Of a DNA stretch of 64,000 nucleotides, positions 1,844-61,100 are shown piece after piece; within the stretch, counting starts at the first letter, position 1; the number at the start of each line of letters is the position of its first letter. Where the stretch lies: contig JANJGN010000004.1 of assembly GCA_026770705.1 (NCBI GenBank), forward strand, positions 9,858,001 through 9,922,000, read 5' to 3'. Source of the DNA: Isurus oxyrinchus (Eukaryota). A program made the translations under genes and the position numbers. The notes beneath the pieces are model-generated. The model searched no databases, was not told where the DNA came from, and saw only the letters and a list, made by a program, of their open reading frames with translations.

Positions 1844-3908
1844 TAAGACCATAAGTTGTAGGAGCAGGAGTAGTCCATTGAGTCTGCTCTGCCATTCAAT
1901 GAGATCATGGCTGATCTGATAATCCTCAACTCCACTTTTCTGCCTTTTCCTCATAACCCTTGATCCCCTTACTGATTAAAAATCTGTCTATCTCAGCCTT
2001 GAATATACTTAACGACCCAGCCTCTACATCCCTCTGTGTAAAGAATTCCACAGATTCACTACCCTCTGAGAGAAGAAATTCCTCCTCATCTCTGTTTTAA
2101 ATAGCCGCCCCCTTACTCTGAGATTATGCCCTCTGGTCCTAAATTTTCCCACATGGGGAAAGAACCTCTCAGCATCTATCCTGTCAAGCCCCTTAAGAAT
2201 CTTATATGTTTCACTAAAGTCGTCTCTCATTCTTCTAAACTTTCATGAGTACAGGCCCAACCTACTCAACCTCTCCTCATAAGAAAATCCCTCCATACCT
2301 GGGATCAATCTAGTGAACCCTCGCTGGACTGCCTCCAGTGTCAGCATATCTTTCCTCAGATAAGAGGACCAAAATTATTCACAGTATTCTAGGTGTGGTC
2401 TAATTAGTGCCTTGTATAGTTTCAGCAAGTCTTCCCTATTTTTATACTCCATTCCCACTGAAATAAAGGCCAACATTCCATTTGCTTTCCCTGTTACCTG
2501 CTGAACTTGTATGTTAGTTTCTTGGGATTCGTGCACAAGGACCCCCAAATCTCTCTGTGCTGCAGCCTTCTGCAGTCTTTCTCCATTTAAATAATATTCA
2601 GATCCTCTATTCTTCCTGCCAAAGCAGATAACCTCACATTTTCCCACATTATATTGCATCTATCAAGTTTTTGCGCACTCACTTAACTTGTCTGTAGACT
2701 CCTTGTGTCATCCTCACCACTTGCCTTCCCACCTATTTTTGTGTCTTCTGCAAACTTGGTGATAGTACATTCACTTCCTTCATCTAAGTTATTAATATAT
2801 ACTGTAAATAATTAAGGCCCCAGTGCTGATCCCTGTGGCAGTCCACTAGTTACATGTTGCCATCCAGAAAATGGCCCCCTATCCCTACTGTCTGTCTTCT
2901 CTTAGTTAGCCAATTCTCTATCCATGCTAATATACTGCCCCCAACACCATGGGCTCTTATCTTAGTAAGTAGCCTTGTGTGCGGTACCTTATTGAACGCC
3001 TTTTGGAGATCCAAATATATTCCATCTACTGGTTCCCCTTTATCTGTCCTGCTTGTTTCCTCCTCAAAGAATTCTAATAAATGTGTTAGGCATGATTTTC
3101 CCTTCATAAAGCTATGCTGACTCTGCTTGATTAGATTATGTATTTCTAAATGCTCTGCTATTACATCCTTTACAAAAGACTCCAACATTTTCCCAAAGAC
3201 AGATGTTAAGCTAACTGGCCTATAGTTACCTGTTTTTTGTCTCCCTCCATTTTTGAATAAGGGTGTTATATTGGCCGTTCACCAATCCTCTGGGACTTCT
3301 CCAGAATCTAAAGATTCTTGGAAGATTACTACCGTTGCATCCACAATCTCTGTAGCTAATTCCGTTAATATCTTAGGATACAACCCATCAGGTCCAGGGG
3401 ACTTATTGGCCTTTAGTCCCATTAGTTTCCCTAGTACTATTTCCCTAGTGATAGTTATTGTATTTATTTCCTCTCCCGCTTTTGCCCCTTGATTATTTAG
3501 TATTTTTGGAATGTTGTATCTTCCACAGTGAAAGCTGAAGCAAAGTACTTATTCAACTCCTCTGCCATTTCCTGGTTCCCCATTATTATTTCCGCAGCCT
3601 CATTCTCTAAGGAGCCTACGTTCACTTTGGCCTCTCTGTCCTATTTTATATATTCAAAGAAGCTCTCACTGTCCATTTTTATATTACTTGCTAGTTTACC
3701 CTCAAAGGTTATTTTTTCCCTCTCTATTTTTTTGATCATCTTTTGTTGGTATTTAAAATGTTCCCAATCCTCTGGCTTACCACTAATCTTTGCCATATTG
3801 TATGTTTTTTCTTTTAATTTGATACTGTCCTTAACTTCCTTGGTTAATCATGGTTGGTTTATCCCCTTCCTAGAATCCTTCTTCCTTACTGGGATATATT
3901 TTTGTTAA
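1844..3908 (-). mobile_element. CR1 LINE (family A), 5'-truncated ORF2 RT region and 3' end, decayed
   Basis: Minus-strand peptides KQSQHSFMKGKSCLTHLLEFFE, IYLDLQKAFNKVPH, LYKALIRPHLEYC, RTRGHNLRVRGRLFKTEMRRNFFSQRVVNLWNSL; fragmented by stops and frameshifts. Confidence 0.92.
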
Positions 3909-12146: not shown

Positions 12147-12660
12147 GAATGGATTGAGGAGCAGAGCATTAGGACTCAGGGTGAATGGATTGAGGAGCAG
12201 AGCATTGGGACTCAGGGTGAATGGATTGAGGAGCAGAGCATTGGGACTCAGGGTGAATGGGAAGGGGTGTCAGAGCATTGGGAATCAGAGTGAATGGGAA
12301 GGGGTGTCAGAGCATTGGGAATCAGAGTGAATGGGAAGGGGTGTCAGAGCATTGGGAAATAGGGTGAATGGGAAGGGGTGTCAGAGCATTGGGAAATAGG
12401 GTGAATGGGAAGGGGTGTCAGAGCAATGGGATTCAGGGTGAATGGGAAGAAATGGTAGAGCATTGGGAAATAGGGTGAATGGGAAGGGGTGTCAGAGCAT
12501 TGGGAAACAGGGTGAATGGGAAGGGGTGTCAGAGCATTGGGAAATAGGGTGAATGGGAAGGGGTGTCAGAGCAATGGGATTCAGGGTGAATGGGAAGAAA
12601 TGGTAGAGCATTGGGAAACAGGGTGAATGGGAAGAGATGGTAGAACTTTGGGACTGAGGT
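12147..12660 (+). repeat. G-rich minisatellite, ~14 units of 36-37 bp
   Basis: Tandem units GAATGGGAAGGGGTGTCAGAGCATTGGGAAATAGGGT and variants; no unique spacers. Confidence 0.97.
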
Positions 12661-15944: not shown

Positions 15945-16300
15945 TAACCAAGGGACAATGGAGGAATGGCAAAACCTGTCCAAGTGAGAAGGGTGTGTAA
16001 TGGGAGAAGAACTTGAATGCAATGATGAGCCACAACATTGCTGCTCCTGTTCTTCTAAGTGGTAGAGACTGCAAGGTAGGGAGGTGCTGTTGAAGTAACC
16101 TTGGTGAATTGCCACAGTGCATCTTGTATATCATACATTCTGTAGCCACAGTTCACCAGTGGCAGAGGGCGTGAATATTGAATCAAGTGGCAGGGGTACC
16201 AACCAAGCAAGTTGCTCTGTCCTGGATGATGGTAAGCATTGTTACAGCAGCCCCCGCCCAAGTAAATGGTGAGTCTTCTATTACAATCCTGACTTGTAGA
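15945..16300 (-). mobile_element. CR1-clade LINE family B 3' fragment
   Basis: CMIYKMHCGNSPRLLQQHLP is homologous to 21650-21730. Confidence 0.8.
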
Positions 16301-19626: not shown

Positions 19627-22005
19627 TGGCTTGGTGGCCCACTACAGACCAAGCTGGCTGAGTCCTAAATGACATAGCTGCGAATCTGGGTCTGCGGCAG
19701 GTAGTGAGGGAACCAACAAGTTGGAAAAACATACTTGACCTCATCCTCACCAACCTGCCTGCCGTGGATGCATCTGTCCATGACAGTAATCAGTAGGAGT
19801 GACCACCGCACAGTCCTTGTGGATTTGAAGTCCAATCTCCACATTGAGGATATCCCTCCATTGTGTTGTGTGGTACTACCACTGTGCTAAATAGAATAGA
19901 TTTAGAACAGATCTAGCAACTCAAGACTGGGCATCCATGAGGTGCTGTGGGCCAACAGCAGCAGCAGAATAGTACTTGAACACAATCTGTAACCTAATAG
20001 CCCAGCATCTCCCCCATCCTACCATTACCATCAAACCAGGGGATTAACCCTGGTTCAATGAAGAGTGCAGGAGGGCATGCCAGGAGCAGCATCAGGGATA
20101 CCTAAAAATGAGGTGTCAACTTGGTGAAACTACTATTTGTGTGCCAAACAGCATAAGCAGCAAACGATAGACAGAGCTAAGTGATTCCACTACCAAAAGA
20201 TCAGGTCCAAGATCTGCAGTCCTGTGATATCCAGTTGTGATTGTTGGTTGACAACTAAACAACTCACTGAAGGAGGAGGTCCACAAATATTCCCATCTTC
20301 AATGATGGAGGAGCCCAGCATGTCAGTGCAAATGATAAGGCTGAAGCATTTGCAACAATCTTCAGCCAGAGGTGCCGAGTGGATGTTTCACCTTGGCATC
20401 CTCCAGAGGTCTCCAGCATTACAGATGCAAGTCTTCAGCCAATTCAATTCACTCCACATGATGTCAAGAAATGGCTGAAGGCACTGGATACTGCAAAGGC
20501 TACGGGCCCTGACAATATTCTGACAATAGTACTGAAGACTTGTGCTCCAGAACTTACTGCGCCCCTAGCCAAGCTGTTCCAGTACTGCTACAACACAGGC
20601 ATCTACCCAGCAATGTGGAAAATTGCCCAGGTATGTCCTGTACACAAAAAGCAGGACCAATCCAACCCAACCAATTACCACCCCACCGGTCTGCTCTCGA
20701 TCATCGGTAAAATAATGGAAGAGGTCATCAACAGTGCTGTCAAGCAGCTCTTGCTTAGCAATAACCTGTTCTCTGATGCCCAGTTTGGGTTCTGCCAGGG
20801 TCAACCAGATTCTGACCTCATTAAAACGTTGGTTCAAATGTGGACAAAAGAGCTGAACTCCTGAGGTGAGGTGAGAGTGACTGCCCTTGACATCAAGGCA
20901 GCATTTCAGCAAGTGTGGCATCAAGGTGCCCTAGCAAAACTGGGTGAAACCCTTTGCTGGTTGGATCATACCTACCAAAAAGGAAGATGGTTGTGGTTGT
21001 TAGTGGTCAATCATCTCAGCTCCAGGACATCACTGCAGGAGTTCCTCAGGGTAGTGTCCTAGGCCCAACCATCTTCAGCTGCTTCATCAATGACCTTCCT
21101 TCCATTATAAGTTCAGAAGTGGGGATGTTCGCTGATGATTGCACAGTGTTCAGCACGATTTGCGACACCACAAATATTGAAGCAGTCCATGTCCAAATGC
21201 AGCAAGACCTGGAAAATATCCAGGCTTGGGCTGACAAATGACAAGTAACATTCACGCCAGGCAATGACCATCTCCAACAAGAGAGAATTTAACCATTGCC
21301 CCTTGACGCTCAATGAAATTACCATCGCTGATCCACCACTATCAACATCCTGGGGGTTACCTTTGACCAGAAACTGAACTGGACTAACCATATAAATAGT
21401 GTGACTACAAGAGGAGGTCAGAGGTTAGGAATCCTGCAGCGAGTAACTCACCTCCTGATTCCCCAAAACCTGTCCACCATCTACAAGGCACAAACAGGGA
21501 GTGTGATGGAATACAATCCCCTTGCCTGGATGAGTGCAGCTCCAACAACACTCAAGCTTGGCACTATCCTGGGAAAATCAGCCTGCTTGATTGGCACTAC
21601 ATCCACAAACAATCACTCCCTCCACTACCGATGAACTGTGGCAGCACAATGTACTATATACAAGATTCGCTGCAGGAACTCACTAAGGCTCCTTAGACAG
21701 CACCTTCCAAACCCACAACTGCTACCATCTAGAAAGACAAGGGCAGCAGATACATGGGAACACCACCACCTGGAAGTTCCCCTCTAAACCACTCACCATC
21801 CTGACTTGGAAACATATTTCAATTTTTTCATTGTTAAGGGTCAAAATCCTGGAACTCCCTTCCTAACAGCACTGTGCAGGTACCTGTACCACATGGACTG
21901 CAGCGGTTCAAGAAGGCAGCTCAGCACCACCTTCTCAAGGGCAACTAGGGATGGGCAATAAATGCTGGCCCTGCCAGCAAAACCCACATCCCATAAAAGA
22001 ATATA
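19627..22005 (+). mobile_element. CR1-clade LINE family B, long 5'-truncated copy (EN C-terminus, RT, 3' tail)
   Basis: [67 protein letters not shown]; tail gggcaactagggatgggcaataaatgctggcc...cacatcccat; stops and frameshifts. Confidence 0.93.
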
Positions 22006-34663: not shown

Positions 34664-34791
34664 TTTCACTGCGCGCTGGAGACAAAATATTACATGGGTA
34701 CACGATGACATTGGGATGCTTGCCTGACATCATTATGTGCTGCTTCACACTCAGGTGTATACCTGCACACCAAGGTGGCAATTCTGCCTCA

Positions 34792-34885
34792 GATTTCTAT
34801 TGAATTCAAATTTTACCATCTGCCATCGTGGGATTCGAACCCAGGTCCTCAGACCATTACCCTGGGTCTTTGGAATATAGTCCAA
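34792..34885 (-). mobile_element. tRNA-derived SINE/LINE head fragment
   Basis: gaattcaaattttaccatctgccatcgtgggattcgaacccaggtcc..attaccctgggtct..tagtcca; B box GGTTCGAATCC; closely matches 58065-58148. Confidence 0.75.
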
Positions 34886-43799: not shown

Positions 43800-44408
43800 T
43801 TAGACTAACCATATAAATACTGTGGCTACAAGAGCAGGTCAGAGGCTAACAATCCTGCGATGAGTAACCCACCTCCTGACTCTGCAAAGTCTGTCCACCA
43901 TCTACAAGGCACAAGTCAGGAGTGTGATGGAATACTCTCCACTTGCCTGGATGAGTGCAGCCCCCACAACACTCAAGAAGCTTGACACTGTCCAGGACAA
44001 AGCAGTCCACTTGATTGGCACCACATCACTCCCTCCACGACCGACGCACAGTAGCAGCAGAGTGTACCATCTACAAGATGCACTGCAGGAATTCACCAAG
44101 GCTCCTTTGATAGCACCTTCTAAACCCATGATCACTACCATCTAGAAGTACAAGGGCAACAGATAGATGGTAACACCACCACCTGGAAGTTCCCCTCTAA
44201 GTGACTCACCATCCTGACTTGGAAATATATCTTCGTTCCTTCACTGTCACTGGGTCAAAATTCTGGAACTCCCTTCCTAACAGCACTGTGGGTTTACTTA
44301 CACCACATGGACTGCAGCGGTTCAATAAGGCAGCTCACTACCACTTCTCAAGGGCAATTAGGGATGGCCAAGCCAGCAACGGCCACATCCCGTAAATTAA
44401 TCAAAAAA
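43800..44408 (+). mobile_element. CR1-clade LINE family B 3' fragment
   Basis: MEYSPLAWMSAAPTTLKKLDTVQDKA; family B tail. Confidence 0.9.
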
Positions 44409-44524
44409 AAAGTCTCAGTTTTCTGTATGATTTGTACATCACACAAATTCTCCTTTAGGACTGCTGTTCTGTCTTCTGATTCTCATCAGTTAAAAATAAT
44501 CACACTTTAGATTTAAAATAATTG

Positions 44525-47210
44525 GATAGGCCAGCATTTATTACTCATCCCTAATTGCCTGTGAGAAGGTGTGGTCAGCTGCATTCTTGAACTGCTGCAG
44601 TCCAAATGGTGTAGGTACACCCATAGTACTGTTAGGAAGGGAGTTCTGATCCAGCGGCCGTGAAGAAACAGTGATACAGTTCCAAATCAAGCTAGTGTAT
44701 GGCTTGGCGGTGAACTTGCAGGTGGTGGTGTTGCCATGTATATGGTGTCCTTGTCCTTCTTGGTGGTAGAGGTTACAGGTTTGGAAGGTGCTCTTGAAGG
44801 AGCCTTGATGAATTCCTGCAGTGCATTTTGTAGATGGTACACACTGCTGCTACTGTGCATCAGTGGTGGAGGTAGTGAATGTTGAAGGTGATGGATGGGG
44901 TGCCAGTCAAGTGGACTGCTTTCTCCTAGGTGGTGCTGAGCTTCTTGAATGTTGCTGGAGCTGCACTCATCCAGGCAAGTGGAGAATATTCCATCACACT
45001 CCTGACTTGTGCCTTGTAGATGATGGACAGGCTTCAGGGGTCAGGAGGTGAGTTACTCTCTGCAGAATTCCCAGTCTCCAACCTGTTCTTGTAAACACAG
45101 TATTTATATGGCTAGTCCAGTTCATGGCTGGTCCAGTTCCGTTTCTGGTCAATGGTAACCCTTCCAGAAGTTGATAGTGGGGGATTCAGCAATGGTAATG
45201 CCATTGTATGTCAAGGGGCGATGGTTGGGTTTTCTTTTGTTGGAGATGGTCATTGCCTGATACTTGTGTGGCAGAAATGTAATTTGACACTTATCAGCCC
45301 TAGCTTGAATGTTGTCTAGGTCTTGCTGCTTAAGGACATGAACTGCTTCAATACCTGAAGGTATCTGGTGCTAAACATTGTGCAATCATCAGTGAACATT
45401 CCCATTCCTCCATCTGATGAAAGGAAGGTCATTGAAGCAGCTGAAGATGGTTGGGCCTAGGACACTACCCTGAGCAATGCCTGCAGTGATATCCTGGAAC
45501 TGATATGATTGACTTCCAACAACCACAGCCATTTTCCTTTGTGCTAGGTATGACTCCAACCAGCAGAGGTTTTTCCCTGATTCCCATTGAATTCAGTTTT
45601 ACTAGGGCTCCTTGATGCCACACTCAATCAAATGCTGCCTTGATGTCAAGGGCAGTTACTTACTTTACCTTTTGAGTTTAGCTCTTTCGTCCATTGTTAT
45701 GACCGATGCGTTTGGTAAAGTGAAGTTATTTAAAAATCCCAGAGGGAAACTTTAAACAACTCTCATAATCAATAATTTTAAGTGTTATGTTTGAGATGCG
45801 ACTCTAAACTCAGTAATCAGACCACTAGTTCTCGAGGTTTTACATTAAACTAAATGAAACATTTTATTAATTACACAGGTTAAAATGTATACACATGGCT
45901 ACAAATGACTACTATCACAACTTTTAACAAGTTCCCAAACTAATCTCCATTAAGGCAACAACAACCCATAGACTTAACCAAAACTCCAGGCAAAGCATTT
46001 TCACCTTACAAATTCAAAATGAGGTTCTTTCCACTGTGGAGCCAGCTGGGGACTTACAGCTGCCTTTTGATCTTACATTGCCTCTGTCTGCATACCCCAA
46101 AACTGCGGAAGCTACACCTACCAGCCCCAATGAATGTTAATTCTCATTGTATCAACGACCTCTTTGAACTTCAAAAAAATGCACATACATGGTATCTCTC
46201 TGTTTACATCTCAGACTTGTACATCAAAACACCCAGACTAGCTGGCTTCAGTCCAATTAAGACACACCCACAGACTAAACCCCTATTTTAAAAGAAAAAT
46301 ATTTTCCAAAATATGATATGCATTTATAGCTTCAGGGCATCTATGTTTGGACCAAGGCTGTAATAAGACCAGTTCCTGAGTGGCTCTGGCAGAACCCAAA
46401 TTGATCATTAATGAGCAGGTTATTTCTGACTAAGTGCAGCTTGTTAGTACTGTCGGCGACCTCTTCCATCATTTTGTTGATGCTGAAGAGTAAACTGATG
46501 CCGGGTTGGATTTGTCTGCTTTTTTTGTATCGACATACCTGGGAAATTTTCCATATTGTCAGGTAGATGCCAGTGTCACAGCTCCACTGGAACAATTTGG
46601 CTAGGTGTGTGGCTAGCTCTGGAGCACAAGTCTTCAGTACTATTGCTGGAATGTTGTCAGGGCCTGTAGCTCTGGCAGTATCCAGTACCTTCAGCTGTTT
46701 CTTGATATTGTGTGGAGTGAATCAAATTTGCTGAAGACCAGCATTTATGATACTGGAAACCTCAGGAGGAGGCCAAGCTGGATCATCCACCCGGGACGTT
46801 TGGCTGAAGAGTGTTGCAAATGCTTCAGCCTTATCTTTTGCACTGATGTGCTGAGCTCCTCCATCATTGAGCTTGGGGATATTTGTGGAGCCTCCTCCTC
46901 CAGTGAGTTGTCCAACACCATTCACAACTGGATGTGGCAGGACTGCAGAGCTTAGATCTGATCCTTTGGTTATGGGATCGCTTAGCTCTGACTATCGCAT
47001 GCTGCTTATGCTGTTCGGCGCACAACTAGTCTGCTGTTGTAGCTTCAGCAGGTTGACACCTCATTTCTAGGTATGCCTTGTGCTGCCCTCCTGCACTCTT
47101 CATTGGGGTTGATCCCCTGGCTTGATGGTCATGGTAGAGTGGGGGATGTGCTGGGCCAGGAAGTTACAGATCGTGGCTGTATACAATTCTACCTTTGCTA
47201 ATGGCCTGCA
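44525..47210 (-). mobile_element. CR1-clade LINE family B (RT and 3' end), interrupted by a solo LTR
   Basis: Reverse-complement homolog of ~20000-21980 (QLTGGGGSTNIP, KDKAEAFATLFSQ, DQFGFCQSHS..LITALVQT). Confidence 0.9.
45695..46339 (-). mobile_element. Solo LTR nested in a LINE
   Basis: TGTTATGA...TCAGGGCA termini; 5-bp TSD TCCAT/TCTAT; LINE sequence resumes exactly across the insertion; minus-strand AATAAA at ~45865. Confidence 0.78.
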
Positions 47211-48479: not shown

Positions 48480-48690
48480 AGATCCTGGCACAGGACATTG
48501 CTTGTTGCAGAGTTCCCAACCTCTGACTTGCTCTTGTAGCCATGCCTTGTCCAATTCAGTTTCAGGTTAATGGTAACCTCCAGGATGTTGATAGTGGGGC
48601 ATTCCATGATAGTAATCCTATTGAATGTCAAGGCAAGACAATTAGTTTCTCTCTTGTTGAAGGTTGTCATTGCCTAGCACATGGGACAAA
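48480..48690 (-). mobile_element. LINE family B internal fragment
   Basis: MTTFNKRETNCLALTFNRITIMECPTINILEVTI is homologous to 21265-21380. Confidence 0.72.
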
Positions 48691-48989: not shown

Positions 48990-50917
48990 TAGGATCTCCC
49001 TATTGATTATGGCATCAGGTGCAAAGCAGAGCCTGGGTATACTGGCACACCTTTCAACATTTCCACCATTGTGCCCCTCCTCACCCTCCTCAGTTACATC
49101 TTCACCTGAGGTAAATGGCTCCTCCTCCTCGACCTTTTCTTCTTCCTGATGAGCAGTCTTCTTCACCGGGCCCCGGATCTTACTTTTGAATATGCCTTTG
49201 CAACGCCATATTATGCAGCAGGCCACCACTATTCTTGATATCCTTTCGGGTGAGTATTGCAGTGCTCCTCTGTGCAGTCTAGGCACTGGAAACACATTTT
49301 AAAAATGCCAATAGCCTGCTTGATGGTTGCCCTGTTCTGAAGGCGACCATGTTATGATGCTGTTCCGGCACCATTTCCAGATGGCGCAATGGAGCAAGCA
49401 GCCAGCTCCTGAATGGGTAACCTTTTTCCCCCCAGTAGCCAGTCACAGGCCTGGGTGTAGGCTCAAACAGGGGTGGAAGGTTTGATCCCCTCAAGATGAA
49501 TGAGCCATGGCTACTTCCAGGGAATCTTGCACAGACATGGAGGAAAACATTATTGTTGTCACACACAAGCTGGAAGTTGATGGAGTAAAAAGACTTTCTA
49601 TGCATTTATCAGTGAGCCTCCTGTGGTGGTGCTTTGTTGGTAATGTGTGTGCAATCTGTTATGCCTTGCGCTTGTGGAAAGCCTACTGTTGACATGAACC
49701 TCATTGCTCTTTGGCTCTGAGACTCCACATCTGTAATGAATTTAATGTGCTCCCCTACCAACAAGAGAGAATCCAACCATCTCCCTTTGGCATTCAATGG
49801 CATTACCATCACTGAATCCCCCACTCTCAATTTCCTTGGGGTAGCCATTGAGCAGAAATTGAACTAAACCACCTACAGAAATACTGTGGCTACCAGAGTA
49901 GGTCAGAGACTGGAAATTCTGCAATGAGTAATTCTTGACTCCCCAAATCCTGCTCACCATCTACATGGCAGAAGTCAGGAGTGTGATGGAATTCTCTCCA
50001 CTTGCCTGGATGAAAGCAGCTCCAACAACAGTCAACAAGCTCAATGCCATCCGGGACAAAGCAGCCTACTTGATTGGCACCCCATCCACCATTTTCAGCA
50101 TCCACTCACTCCACCGCTGATGCAGAGTGGCCACAGTGTGTGCCATCTACATGATGCACTGCCGCAACTCACCAATGCTTCTTCGGCAGCACCTTCCAAA
50201 CCCGTGACCTCTACCACCAAGAAGAAGAAGTACAGCTGGCACATGGGAATGCCACCGCCTGCAAATTCCCATCCAAGTGGCTCGTCATCTGGACTGGAAA
50301 ATACATCACTGTTGCTGGGTCAAAATCCTGGAACTCTCTTCCTAACAGCAATGTGGGTGTACCTACATGATATGGAATGCAGCAGTTCAAGGGCCAGCGC
50401 ACCACTTCTGAAGGGCAATTGGGGCTGGGCAATAAATGTTGGCCTAGCCGGCTATCCCCACATCCCATAAAAGAATATAAAAAAAAACACTTGCAAAGAA
50501 GACTTCAGTTACTGCTGCTATGTACCTATGGGCAGCTGACTGTGAGATGCTGGAGAGATCTGCCGCAGAGCCCTGGAAGGGCACAAATACATAAAAGTTG
50601 AGGGCCACAGTGACACTGACAGCTATCAGCATGTACACCAGTTGCTCGAGGCACGACGTCTGCCTCCATATGGCACAGATCTTACTGACCATATCCCGAG
50701 ACACCCGAAGCCGTCGCCTACATTGCTTCTCACTCATGTCCAGGAAGCTAAAACCGTTCCTGTACACCCTTTATTCAGGGTAATATCTCACCTTCCTCCT
50801 CCTTGCTGCCCTGCCTGGGGACTCTGCCAACTCGTGCCCGGGTACCCTGGCTCTAGCCGTACACTGCTGCTGGTGGCTTTTCTCCATATTGTTCATGTGT
50901 GAAGGTTATGCACCCAT
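48990..50917 (-). pseudogene. Harbinger transposase, split by a LINE insertion
   Basis: FSFLDMSEKQCRRRLRVSR, VTVALNFY..FQGSAADLSSISQSAAHRYI | GFPQAQGITDCTHI, RKSFYSINFQLVCD, CARFPGSSHGSFIL, GALQYSPERISRIVVACC. Confidence 0.88.
49757..50488 (+). mobile_element. CR1-clade LINE family B 3' fragment nested in the transposase
   Basis: VRSVMEFSPLAWMKAAPTT; family B tail plus A-rich end. Confidence 0.9.
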
Positions 50918-55164: not shown

Positions 55165-56404
55165 GCCCCCTTCTCCCGTTTGATAAAAAGAAAAACTTTG
55201 TAAGAACATACATAACAGTGCATATCAGGCATAACAAGACTGAGTCACGGTATAGTGTCTTCATGCATGAAGATAATATTTTGGTGGGCGTATGATGCAA
55301 CCGTATATTGTTCTCTGCAGGTTTCATGGTACTGAGTTGTGTCCTGTGGTTGTGCATTCATAGGTTGTGTTCTTGGTTGTTCATTGTGGGATCATTTTGT
55401 CCTACAGCGTTGGTACTTGTGTGATCCTCTGCGATTGAGATAACACTCTCTGTGCCTGAGACATCGTCAATTTGCGGTTCTGCATGTGCAATGCAAATGT
55501 GCCAATGGTTCCTTCTGAGGATCTGTTCATTTGGCATCTCAGCTGCATATGACCTTGGCTGTGTGCATTTTCGCAGTATCTTCCCTTGTACCCACGTGAT
55601 CCACAAAACGCATGCTTTGACCTACATGGAACATGTAACCGTCTGCCTCTCTAGCTGTGCTGCTGAGACATCCTCTCTCTTCATTCTAATAGAATATCAT
55701 GAGCTTCTGTCTAGATTGGGAGTAGAGGGGACAGGAGAATGGTGTGGACTTGCCTCCCAAACAACAAATTGGCAGGTGAGGGTAGCCTGTCTCCCTGCGG
55801 TGTGGAACAAAGATTGAGCATCGCGATTCGGGAATCTTGCTTGGTTGCTTTAAACTTCAGACGTTTTATTTATTTATTTATTCATTGTGTTGCTTTCACT
55901 GTCTGGATGGTCCATTGTGCTAACCTGTTGGATTGAGGGTAGTGTGTGGAAGTGATGTTTTACACCTTATTTTGTGCATGGTCCTATATATTGAGGACCA
56001 TTGTCTGAGACAATGGTTTCAGGCACATCAAACATGCTGAAAATTGCAGCGAGTGTATCAACAACCATAAAGCTGGTCATGTCCTTGATTTGGCAAATGA
56101 AAGAGAATTTGTTAAACCAGTCCCTGACCAAAATGTGATCTTCGCCATCTAGATGGAGTAAAATAGTGACTATTTTCGACCATGGGACAGAGGGGATTTC
56201 ATGTGGTAACAATGGTTCTCTGCCCTGCTGGGGTTGCTGCATCTGGCAGGTATGGCATGCCTGTGTATTTTGTCAATGTTCTTGTTAATTCCTGGCCAAC
56301 AAAATGATTCTCTGGCAAGAAACTTTGTGCGTCCGATGTGTACGTGACTTAACATGGTTTGATGCATTGCGTGAGGTATGAGGATTTGCTTGCCTTTGAA
56401 TTTT

Positions 56405-58167
56405 ATCTTATTCATGGGATGTGAATGTCGCTGGCTAGGCCAGTATTTATGCCCATCCCTAATTGCCCGAGAGAAAGTTTTTTTTACTCATTCACAGCAT
56501 GTGGACTGGCTGGGCCAGCATTTATTGTCCATTCGTAGTTGCCCTTGAGAAAGAGGTGGTGAGCTGCCTTCTTGAAATGCTGCAGTCCATGTGGTGTAGG
56601 TACACCCATAGCGCTGTTAGGGAGGGAGTTCCAGGATTTTGACCCAGCAACAGTGAAGGAATGGCGACATATTTCCAAGTCAGGATGGTGAGTAACTTGG
56701 AGGGGAACTTCCAGGTGATGGTGTTCCCATGTATCTGCTGCCCTTGCCCTTCTAGATGGTAATGATCATGGGTTTGGAAGGTGTTGCCTAAGGAGTCTTG
56801 GTGAATTCCTTCTTGAACCGCTGCAGTCCCTGTGGTGTAGATACACCCACAGGTGGTCCTGTGTTGTAGCTTCACCAGGTTGCAACCTCATTTTTATGTA
56901 TGCTGCTCCTGGCGTGCACTCCTGCACCCTCCATTGAACCAAGGTTGCTCCCCTGGCTTGGTGGTAATGGTAGAATGGGGGATAAGCTGGGCCATGAGGT
57001 TATGGTTTGTGATGGAGTGCAACTCCACTGCTGCTGATGGCCCACAGCACCTCATGGTTGCCTGGTCTTGAGTTGCTAAATCTGTTCTAAATCTATCCCA
57101 TTTAACATGTTGGTAGTGCCACAAAACACGATGGAGGGTATTCTCAATGTGAAGATGGGACTTCATCTCCACAAGGGCTGTGCAGTGGGCACTCCTACTG
57201 ATGCTGTCGTGGACAGATGCATCTGCGGCAGACAGGTGAGGTCAAGTATGTTTTTTTCCTATTGTTGGATCCCTTACCAGCTGCTGCAAACCCAGTCTAG
57301 CAGGTATGTCTTTTAGGACTTAGCCAGCTCAGTCTGTAGTGGTGCTAATGAGCCACTCTTGGTGATGGACATTGAAGTCCCCACCCAGAGTACAATCTGC
57401 GCCCTTGCCACCCTCAATGCTTCCTCCAAGTCGCTTTTAACATGGAGGAGTACCGATTCATCAGCTGAGGGGGAGTAATACGTAATAAACAGCAGGAGGT
57501 TTCCTTGCCCCTATTTGAACTGATGCCATGAGACGTCATGGGGTCTGGAGTCGATGTTGAGGACTCCCAGGGCAATTCCCTCCTGACTGTATATCACTGT
57601 GCTGCTATTCCTGCTTGGTCTGTCCTGCCAATGGCACAGGACATACCCAGGGATGGTGATGGTGGTGTCTGGGACATTGTAAGGTTTGTTTCCGTGATCG
57701 TGACTATATCCGTCTGTTGCTTGGCTAGACTGAGAGACAGCTCTCCCAGTTTTGGGACTGACCTTCTGAAGTTAGTAAGGAGGAAGTTGCAGGATTGACA
57801 GGGCTGTGATTGCCATTCTCATTTCCAGTGCCTAGGTCCATGATGGGTGGTCTGTCCGGTTTCATTGCTTTTAGACTTCTTGGCAGTTTGATACAACTGA
57901 GTAGCTTGCTTGGCCATTTCAGAGTCAATCACTTTGCGGTGGGTCTGGAGACCAGACCAGGTAAAGATGACAGATTTCCTTCCTTAAAGGACATTAGTGA
58001 ACCTGATGGGTTTTACAATATTCGTTTCATGGTCATCATTGGACTTTTAATTCCAGGTTTTTATGGAATTCAAATTTACCATCTGCCCTGGTGGGATTCG
58101 AACCCGGATCCCCAGAGCATTACCCTGGGTCTGTGGAATACTAGTCCACTACACCATTGCCTCCCCC
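56405..58167 (-). mobile_element. tRNA-headed, internally deleted LINE family B derivative nested in Gypsy pol
   Basis: A box TGGTGTAGTGG (58146-58156), B box GGTTCGAATCC (58094-58104), then EN peptides LLTN..PKLGELS, DIVTITET, IPGY, VLWVGDFNVHH, RTDLATQD..MRCCGPSAA, then a jump to the family B 3' tail. Confidence 0.85.
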
Positions 58168-61100
58168 AAAATGTGATGTTTCTAGAGTTGCCCAGTTCAT
58201 CTCTGTAGTGCCAAATGATTGGATATTTTTGTGAACATCTTCTTCTTTGTGATCAGGCCAACCTGCACGAATAACTTGCTTCAGCTGTTGAAGCTGTGGG
58301 TCTTTCTGAGTGGCCTGTTGCATCATTTCAGCTTGGCCTTGTCTGAATGGATCAAGTTGATGTGGAGATTGTCTTCCACCTCGTATTCGATATTGTCAAC
58401 ACAGAGGTCTAGAGGCACATCTTTGTTGTTGGCTGGGCTGGGTAACTGACTCAGCTTGTCAGAGGTTGCCATTTTAGAGCTTGGTTTATATTGGACATCA
58501 AGGTCCTAGCCCTGAACCTTTCTCAAGCAGGCGCTGGTGGCAATCTGACCAGGGGTTTTCGGCAATGATCTCCTACGACTTGAGGCCTGTTTAGACCATG
58601 AAGCGTTTTCCAAACAGATACATGTGGAAGTGTTGAATGCCAAATACTAATGCAAGAGTTTTGCGTGCAATGTTAGAGTAATTGGCTTGTGCAGAGTAAG
58701 AACCTTAGTGGCAAAAGCTACAGGCTTATCATCCTGTAGTAGGCATGCCCTTTTGTGATGCATCTGCCTCGAGTACACTGTGCTTGGAGGGGTCATAGTA
58801 TTGCAAGACGCATGAGCTCAAAGACGGGGTATCCTTCAAGCTGTGAAAAATGTGCTGGTGTTCTTCCTGTGGAGGTTCCTGAGTGGGGCAACATTGGCTG
58901 CAAAACCTGTGACATACAGAGATAGAAAGTTAACCAAACTGACTCCTTTGCAGGTCATCCTGGTGTTGTGAGGTAGGCCATGTCATGCATCTTCTATTTT
59001 TACTGGATCAGGCTGAATGCCTTGAGAGGCATAGGTGGAACCGAAAAAATTAATCTGGCTCGCATTGATTTGGCATTTGGCACAATTAAAATCTGGCTGC
59101 CTCCATGAGCATATAGGTTGTTGTCATGTTCTGCTTTAGTCTTACCAACGAGTGCTATGTAATTGGCGACGCATAGGCACCCGGGTACATCTTCTATGAT
59201 GCGGTTCATGTGTTGTTGAAACATGTCTTGACTCACTGAGAGCCCAGACAGCAAGCACAAGAAGCAATACCGTCCAAAAGTGGTACAAAAAGCGGTGAGC
59301 TCTTGTGATGCTTGTGCCAGATACACGGACCAGCAGTCGTTCTTAGCATCCAATTTCAAACAGTATCAGGCACCCGTGAACTTGGGATTCAGTTCCTCAA
59401 GCATGGGGATGTTGTGAGGACATCGCTTCCGTGCCACGTTGAGCTGTCTTGGGTCTAGGCATAAACGTGGACCATCCTTCTCTAGAGTGCAGGTGATGGA
59501 ATTGCACCAGTCTGTATGGTGATCGACTTCCCGGGTGATTTTATTGTAGACCATCATGTCCAACTCTGCCTGCAACTTGTCTTGGATATGGATGCTGCAC
59601 TTTCTCGATGGGCCGATGCTGAGTTGAGTATCATCCTTTAGGTGATGCAGTGCGCACCCCTGAAGTTTCCGATGGAGCCGAAGCAACCTGGATACATGGG
59701 TGTAAGGTCCTTATGGAGTCAATTCTTCCTTTGGTACTTTCCTGTGTGGTGATAGCGGCCTCTGTCACATCATAGATAGTAACCATGTGCACGTCACTGC
59801 AAGCGGGCAAACCAATGATTGTCGAGCCACTGGTTTTCACAACATAAAAAAATCTCCTGTGTCCACCTTGATCTTCTGTATTGGCATTGTATTGTGATGG
59901 TGCAAATGCACAGGATGTCAGACTTGTAGGTGGCAAACCGGTCAGATGTTGACTGGTATACTGTGCCTTTGTCCCATATATGTGGTGTTGAGAACGTGCA
60001 ATGTTAAGATGTTGGCACTTGCAGCGGTATCAATTTTCGCATGTGTGGTATATTGTCTGTCGTGCTGTTTACAGTGGCAAATGCGTCGGCTTGTCTGACT
60101 CCATCCACATGGTGAGTGAGGTTGACAATATGTACAGTCCAGCCTGGATCTGTACACTGTGGTGTATGGGGGTTGTTGGGGGGTGGGGGGAGAGGGGGAT
60201 GCCTTCACTTCATTGATATGTTTATGATTTGCAGGGTGAGCTCTGAAAGGGTCATTAGTGTCAGATTGTTGTGGAATCCTTGTTTGTTGTAAGTTTTGTA
60301 CTTTGGGTATGTCTGGTTTGTTGTGTCAGAGACACATTTTTACCCAACGCCCTCTGGTGAAGCATAGTTTGCAATTGTCAACCTATGCTGGATATTGCTT
60401 GGGTAAGTGCAAAAGACCACACCCCACGCAGGGTTTGGGAGTCTTTGATGTTTTGGTTACTGTGGCAATGGCAGATTCATGATCAAGGGCTTGAAGGTGC
60501 TGTTCACCAGCCACTAATGACTCAAACTTTCTACCTTCATCCAGTAGTGCATTTATTGAGTAACCTTTGGCTTTATGTTGTAGCATTTTTTTGGAAAGAC
60601 TTTTGGGCGTTGAAGCGCTGCCAAACTCCATCAATCTCCACAAGATCATCAGCATTGAAGTCACATTTGGCTCCTTTGCACCGGTATCTGTTTATAAATT
60701 GGTTGATGCTTTCACTGGGCAGTTGGCGGCACAACATCTATTCTAGCGTGTGAATTCTGAATTTAACTTGGACCTTCAGTTTATTTTCGATGAATTTGAA
60801 GATTTTACAGGGGTCTTCTTGGTCTTCATCAGATAGACTTGATGAGTTTAAATGCATTAGCCCCTTGCTGTCAAGATTAATTAGTAATCTGGTGGCCTGT
60901 TTCTCTTGTTCCTGTGCCTGCTGGTCTACAAAATGTAAGCACATCTTCTGTCTAAAGAGTTAAAATTCTGCAAAAAAGATCTCCTCGCTAGTTCGTAGTC
61001 AAATCTCTATTTGTCATCGTGATGTTTTTGGTTACTGGCTGCACTGGGTGCTACACACATATAGTTGCTGAGTGCTGTGTCTCTCTGGATAAGAATTTGT

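Follow-up and report, generated by a model that had tools for sequence, protein, structure and literature searches.

A prevailing division among retroelements holds that LINEs are Pol II units and that tRNA-type promoters drive only short non-coding RNAs. A block of DNA in the genome of the shark Isurus oxyrinchus (GCA_026770705.1, contig JANJGN010000004.1) raises the question of whether a protein-coding LINE can carry such a promoter as its own 5' end. The block runs on the minus strand from 58167 to 56405 of the window, the 64,000-nucleotide stretch of DNA that was analysed, and was originally predicted to be a LINE of a CR1-clade family, called family B, with a tRNA-derived head fused to the endonuclease. 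On balance we favor the reading that the locus is a dead, RT-deleted elasmobranch Zenon, that is, a copy of a 3.27-kb single-ORF LINE with a tRNA-Thr-like 5' head, likely transcribed by Pol III end to end.

The window copy

The block begins with a G-run at 58167, and its parts are listed in Table 1. The A box and perfect B box described at the start of the insertion are both present. Endonuclease coding sequence had been placed after about 350 nt; it is there, but its LLTN motif begins 385 nt in, at 57782, and a leader of about 300 nt separates the B box from the endonuclease motifs. The motifs DIVTITET and GDFNVHH were also found, in shifting frames (GDFN at 57382), and stops and frameshifts break this part of the ORF. 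The copy retains family positions ~1-1372 and lacks 1373-2941, so the RT is indeed skipped, with its entire core gone. The tail of the family follows as predicted, but the 3' part is rearranged, with a displaced 55-nt piece and two tails. ARAGORN found no tRNA in the window. The block is a dead, RT-deleted copy of the family identified below as Zenon.

Table 1. Features of the window copy and its flanks (positions in the window)
Feature	Position	Strand	Remarks
Host Gypsy-type pol, upstream flank	58168..59710	-	decayed, weak RVT_1; outside the LINE
tRNA-Thr(AGT)-like head, 5' end of family	58085..58167	-	~12 nt missing between A box and anticodon arm here
A box	58146..58156	-	
Hairpin of ~20 nt inserted at variable-arm position of tRNA-like head	58111..58129	-	
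B box	58094..58104	-	exact GGTTCGAATCC
Conserved leader block of ~150 nt, common to LINE and SINE forms	57879..58010	-	predicted structured; partly by eye
Predicted hairpin with 7-nt anticodon-like loop	57897..57922	-	contains leader AUG
5' part of single ORF (basic N-terminal peptide, APE endonuclease, linker to aa ~360)	56850..57908	-	
Displaced 55-nt piece of ORF 3' end (family 3141-3195)	56799..56852	-	at deletion join
ORF C-terminal end, ~56-nt 3' UTR, poly(A) (family 2942-3273)	56479..56810	-	
Second tandem family tail (family 3198-3267)	56405..56478	-	
Host Gypsy-type pol, downstream flank	55967..56400	-	Integrase_H2C2 and rve; outside the LINE

All domain matches in the Gypsy flanks (RVT_1, Integrase_H2C2, rve) are under the Pfam cut-offs. 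In eight of nine related Gypsy loci the two flanks run into each other, overlapping by 8 bases; thus, the block lies in a single target site from which nothing was lost, in keeping with the description of a pol that rejoins across the whole block. Target-site duplications of 19 full-length Zenon copies were no better than those of cross-paired controls.

The window holds six further Zenon copies, at 19627-22003 (+), 43803-44401 (+), 44523-47206 (-), 49758-50477 (+), 48513-48683 (-) and 15947-16297 (-), which are 5'-truncated or rearranged and are 68-89% identical to the family majority. A lone head fragment at 34790-34884 (-) has the B box and its flank without A box or tail, and a minisatellite with a 37-bp unit in 12.8 copies occupies 12162-12634.

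The head-endonuclease join across the genome

A search of the same genome with the 5' 668 nt yielded 18,693 candidates, of which 40 were scored. All 40 span head and endonuclease, in a sample biased by a query that favors the join. The upstream flanks of these loci differ, indicating that the head is the 5' end of the element. When 39 head loci were extended, 27 reached the tail, and 20 of these, including one duplicate pair, are ~3.0-3.3 kb long and free of large indels.

Because of the bias of this query, samples were also drawn by the endonuclease start, the head or the RT alone. Exact 17-mer matches in the genome numbered 11,235 for heads, 4,771 for endonuclease starts and 58,683 for tails. 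Among the first 30 of the 4,771 endonuclease-anchored copies, 16 reach the head, two reach the leader just behind it, and the remaining 12 end at scattered points with unrelated flanks; no other 5' end was found among these 30. The first 30 of the 11,235 head-anchored copies comprise 10 that enter the ORF, 15 short head-plus-tail forms and five fragments, and 19 of the 30 align from positions 1-5. The head was reached in 11 of 62 loci selected by RT. A conventional 5' UTR with ORF1 upstream of the endonuclease was looked for, and no ORF1-type 5' region appeared among the 30 endonuclease-anchored and 62 RT-selected copies.

A shared alternative 5' end for the family was considered and rejected. 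Comparison of 12 flanks of endonuclease-anchored copies gave a single 27-nt match, and 56 upstream flanks of RT-selected copies gave duplicated loci, displaced family pieces and one further group that shares ~70% identity at unrelated breakpoints (676, 1447, 1555). What looked like a hot spot for truncation at leader position 274 was likewise discarded: a 12-nt length variant had produced it as an artefact of the alignment. Five of the 30 endonuclease-anchored copies (L212, L215, L221, L222, L223) are 5'-truncated within ~30 nt (family about 238-268), where a predicted GCAA hairpin is possibly a pause site for RT.

The join is family-wide and no local accident. That a SINE merely came to lie beside a LINE fragment at this one locus, as the rearranged 3' part with its two tails and the abundance of free SINE forms (15 of 30 heads) might suggest, is extremely improbable and we reject it, given the identical join at 39 other loci, in 16 of the 30 copies sampled without bias and in the seven consensuses in print, and the contiguous Gypsy target site. 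The genome-wide survey of the junction proposed with the original prediction thus came out in its favor, and the description of a single-ORF LINE with a tRNA-derived 5' end applies to the family as a whole.

The full-length element and its identity

The copy majority was built from 22 head-bearing copies with a mean divergence of 8%, three of them without the 3' end. It is 3,273 nt long (about 3,273-3,285), and a single frame runs through 975 codons without a stop and includes all APE and RT motifs. The first Met of this frame is at aa 291, and no other sense frame exceeds 106 aa. A natural copy matches the RVT_1 profile at E=5.5e-24. The frame is followed by a 3' UTR of 56 nt and poly(A), with an A-rich end in 18 of 22 tail-aligned copies. 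No intact copy was found; the longest open frame listed is 804 aa.

By eye, the first 400 nt of the published consensus CarCar_Zenon-1 (length 3,288) are almost letter for letter those of our copy majority, and the head opens each of the seven Zenon consensuses published for sharks and rays, as read in their first 400 nt. The closest public proteins are ray and shark fragments at 69-71%; the next are at ~40%, and the named ones among these are from invertebrates. Judged by this sequence agreement, family B is the published elasmobranch Zenon of the CR1 group (PMC13343379), described there as lacking ORF1, ending in poly(A) and being absent from repeat repositories (Stuart et al. 2026, PMC13343379). 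The family had been correctly predicted to be a single-ORF LINE, and it is already catalogued. The same source, in the text available, reports no ORF1 in Zenon elements of any phylum; therefore the missing ORF1 is a trait of the clade and no consequence of gaining a head. The words 'tRNA' and 'polymerase III' occur zero times in its main text. 'CR1-Zenon-like' LINEs were also named in the whale shark genome (10.1101/443036). The other elasmobranch Zenons (CarCar_Zenon-1, RhiTyp_Zenon-1, ScyCan_Zenon-1, HypSab_Zenon-1 and SquAca_Zenon-1/2/3) have, as far as described, the same single APE-RT ORF, no ORF1 and poly(A), whereas the first 400 nt of the coelacanth and hagfish Zenon consensuses start without the elasmobranch head. 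Unlike the shark family, a canonical vertebrate CR1 has an esterase ORF1 and a long 5' UTR.

Several side observations concern the family at large. In four copies (L154, L170, L174, L181) a more diverged 5' part (79-85%) is joined across a deletion to a less diverged 3' part (92-97%), a pattern suggestive of a template switch from one RNA to another of a different age or subfamily. On small contigs (L118, L121, L130), ~56 nt from the 3' end of the ORF (family 3107-3167) recur in a tandem array of more than 10 units; this stretch overlaps the 55-nt piece displaced in the window copy. In the distant relatives P0028 and P0104, a PHD finger (PF00628) shares one ORF with endonuclease and RT.

The tRNA-like head

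Of four isotypes compared from the same genome, tRNA-Thr(AGT) gave the best alignment to the head (z=6.0), followed by Cys (4.7), Lys (3.2) and Val (2.9). ARAGORN called one insert-less head a tRNA-Thr(agt), and Rfam searches of 10 loci and one leader returned no tRNA, ribozyme or IRES family. The element starts 10 nt before the A box. Among 50 exact matches to a tRNA-Thr-spaced pattern, 48 resemble family heads without the variable-arm hairpin (e.g. L100-L109), and two have a true tRNA-Thr(AGT) arm (one checked, L110). The predicted fold of the head has arm-like hairpins, no cloverleaf and short acceptor pairing. A and B boxes are retained in the LINE consensuses of five species, with deviating B boxes in HypSab and SquAca (by eye).

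Features of a SINE2-type head are present, namely A and B boxes at the 5' end with tRNA homology and no internal T4 in the copy majority. Unlike a SINE, the long form encodes APE-RT; the short forms are non-coding and non-autonomous. The likeness to tRNA-Thr raised a MetaSINE reading, which was dropped as no Meta core was seen by eye, and the Deu core shows by eye a short, non-collinear resemblance.

T-runs and the transcribing polymerase

Pol III terminates at four or more T. The sense strand of the 3,273-nt majority contains no run of at least four T, no TTTNT and no TNTTT; the equivalents in A number 14, 18 and 21. Under synonymous-codon permutation of the ORF, T3 runs are depleted (4 observed, 12.8 expected, P=0.0002), as are interrupted T-runs (0 against 4.5 expected, P=0.006), and A-runs occur as expected. 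The lack of T4 runs is by itself not significant (0 observed, 2.0 expected; P=0.08 with codons preserved, P=0.20 by dinucleotide shuffle), and T makes up only 20% of the sense strand, a low share found in many LINEs.

As a control we used a second CR1-type family of the same genome, assumed to be made by Pol II. Its T4 and T3 runs are near expectation (9 against 10.7 and 31 against 34.4), and interrupted T-runs show a slight deficit (11 against 16.1, P=0.049). The second control comprised 80 related metagenome loci, single copies at 23-32% identity, 40 of them with frames of at least 600 aa. All 40 contain TTTT, at a density of at least 1.0 per kb. No upstream B box was seen in any of them, and their T-run z values (lowest -2.9) all fall short of the family's -3.4. 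Natural Zenon copies carry ~0.3 T4 per kb (19 complete copies), below the lowest control.

The tRNA-type boxes together with an avoided Pol III stop signal argue that this protein-coding element is likely made by Pol III, and we think that full-length Zenon is probably transcribed in this way. Pol III would read the whole element and stop at the first T-run in the flanking DNA; under such read-through, T-runs inside the element would be purged. We hold these two steps, taken together, to be probable. In a cell assay, ORF1p was dispensable for the retrotransposition of Pol III RNAs (PMC2666806, in the part available). This fits the proposal without telling it apart from the alternatives, because an ORF1 is also missing from head-less Zenons. 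Of 24 sequencing runs, all available as assembled contigs and with an RNA status that is mostly guessed, seven were aligned to the element; their contigs cover it and, in part of these runs, the SINE join, but start, strand and polymerase cannot be read from them. In run X15, a coral metatranscriptome, 29% of the words of the element occur, along with contigs that cover its 5' region; contamination or fish-derived material is a likely source.

The best surviving alternative accepts the head as family-wide but has the LINE made by Pol II from leader-internal or host promoters, with the boxes serving the SINEs or a TFIIIC boundary and the T-run depletion having another cause. We consider this combination unlikely, though with an appreciable chance of being right. 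It agrees with the standard view of LINEs as Pol II units (PMC5786205, as far as available), with a leader that between species has changed less than the head (by eye), with the deviating B boxes of HypSab and SquAca, and with the non-significance of the TTTT deficit by itself. It does not sit well with a depletion that is T-specific, extends to interrupted terminators and is absent from the CR1 control and the 40 relatives, nor with boxes kept in five species; the AATAAA hexamer at +115 also counts against it, as a weak point.

Alternatively, upstream host promoters could co-transcribe the element, with the tRNA-like fold acting as an RNase P-type processing signal that cuts a precise 5' end, comparable to the self-cleaving ribozymes of R2 and RTE. 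The precise starts of the 19 head-anchored copies and the predicted arm-like hairpins would suit such a signal, and ORF1-less LINEs often have 5' processing structures according to the available text of PMC5786205. We find this improbable; T-run avoidance would be left unexplained, and the predicted fold lacks a cloverleaf and has short acceptor pairing. Transcription by Pol III remains our preferred reading in what follows.

The leader and the start of translation

Among 100 listed leaders inspected by eye, a stop comes right after AUG-GCC at the in-frame leader AUG in 74, and a second in-frame TAA is present in 33. The first stop is kept in six of seven published Zenon consensuses (by eye, in their available 5' sequence), and its loss showed no linkage with loss of the second. 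A start at this AUG by read-through or in a stop-free sub-lineage was rejected on the basis of these frequencies and unlinked losses. The window copy, in which the codon after the leader AUG is sense where most copies have a stop, belongs to a minority with an open frame from that AUG. With stops following the leader AUG and the first Met of the frame at aa 291, initiation most likely lies downstream of the leader AUG and at a non-AUG codon; the exception would be use of an AUG in another frame, 35 codons before the endonuclease overlap, combined with a frameshift.

Folding predictions place the hairpin with the anticodon-like loop at pair probabilities of 0.94-1.0. An in-frame GCU, 13-14 nt downstream, is complementary to the loop of this hairpin and is kept in all seven published consensuses with a varying spacer (by eye, in the 5' sequence available). 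The candidate pseudoknot has 3-4 bp, shows no compensatory change and competes with an alternative pairing that fits too. The helix upstream of it has one compensatory change in RhiTyp and a G-U intermediate in HypSab, and the GCU in SquAca_Zenon-1 is shifted by one base from its frame in four other species (all by eye, in the published 5' sequence). A long leader hairpin was predicted in a fold made without pseudoknot modelling. Folding of the leader as a whole is modest (z=-1.7, and z=+0.4 in one natural copy), and no IRES in Rfam matched the leader at E<=10.

If made by Pol III, the uncapped RNA would be translated from the structured leader without an AUG, possibly by way of a pseudoknot that mimics a tRNA anticodon beside the in-frame GCU. 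We put forward such a tRNA-mimicking, IRES-like start tentatively, as a model that may well be wrong. The intergenic (IGR) IRESs of dicistroviruses are ~150 nt long and contain a PKI domain (PMC10516663, PMC3894237), and the available text of PMC3894237 raises the possibility of such IRESs in LINEs. The Zenon leader resembles them in its length of ~150 nt, its predicted loop complementary to a downstream in-frame GCU, and its lack, in most copies, of a usable AUG. It differs in having no Rfam match and only 3-4 predicted bp, and PKII and PKIII are not part of the likeness. This is resemblance to a type 6 (IGR) IRES rather than membership. In the literature searched we found no publication on an IRES in a tRNA-headed shark LINE.

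SINE forms and the origin of the head

Short head-plus-tail forms fall mainly into two classes: nine of 21 have one join (J1), nine a second (J2), and three have other joins. The J1 forms lack a leader insertion, as do 69 of 71 long forms in this genome, and the J2 forms contain the insertion that is present in Squalus LINE consensuses. Each SINE class thus matches a 5' state of the LINE, which favors an origin of the two classes as deletion forms of the LINE in at least two births; exchange of heads is a less probable alternative.

In our proposal, an ORF1-less Zenon ancestor would have gained its head, probably when the RT switched template onto a tRNA or SINE RNA. ORF2p would prime on the 3' tail, and template jumps would then produce 5'-truncated copies, deleted copies of the type in the window, and ready-made SINEs.

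Comparison with other known elements

The Zenon family and its lack of ORF1 are already known from the available text of PMC13343379. We found no publication on a tRNA-headed shark LINE in the open-access literature searched, and neither the tRNA head, the terminator avoidance nor the SINE forms were found in print in the literature searched. In its fullest form, our proposal is that shark and ray Zenon is an autonomous element made wholly by Pol III and translated without cap or AUG by a compact, tRNA-mimicking, dicistrovirus-like IRES, in effect a coding SINE that sheds SINEs by deletion. We regard this complete version as doubtful. If true, a vertebrate element present in thousands of head-bearing copies would break the division between Pol II and Pol III elements, and its natural Pol III RNA would have to be translated independently of a cap.

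A close parallel is the Zenon of Lepidoptera, which is ~3.3 kb long with a single ORF and yields, by internal deletion, the SIDE Persaeus, in which its 5' and 3' parts are joined (PMC6740152). As far as that source describes it, the butterfly element is like shark Zenon in its single ORF and repeated 5'+3' deletion derivatives. Persaeus differs in having neither tRNA homology nor a Pol III promoter, whereas deletion in the shark family gives genuine tRNA-headed SINEs, the head being already present in the parent LINE. LINEs with tRNA-like sequence have been mentioned before, namely RTE-1_DAn and elements related to it (available text of PMC5786205).

Among known SINEs, HE1 (a V-SINE; PMC3747384) and SacSINE1 (a DeuSINE; PMC5499810) of sharks have tRNA heads and LINE-derived tails. 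Their partners, HER1 and the L2-2_CM/CR1-like LINEs, share only the tail with them, which by the published descriptions sets them apart from the Zenon SINEs. The bipartite SINEs Bov-tA, AfroSINE and SINE2_Gav join a tRNA head to a 5' part and a 3' part of a LINE (Kojima 2018, PMC5786205). In the model given there, the head is added after deletion to an element that is already non-coding, and only RTE and Vingi contribute. In shark Zenon, by contrast, the head is borne by a coding parent of the CR1 group, and deletion of a headed LINE would offer a one-step route to SINEs, unlike the published model in which the head is added later.
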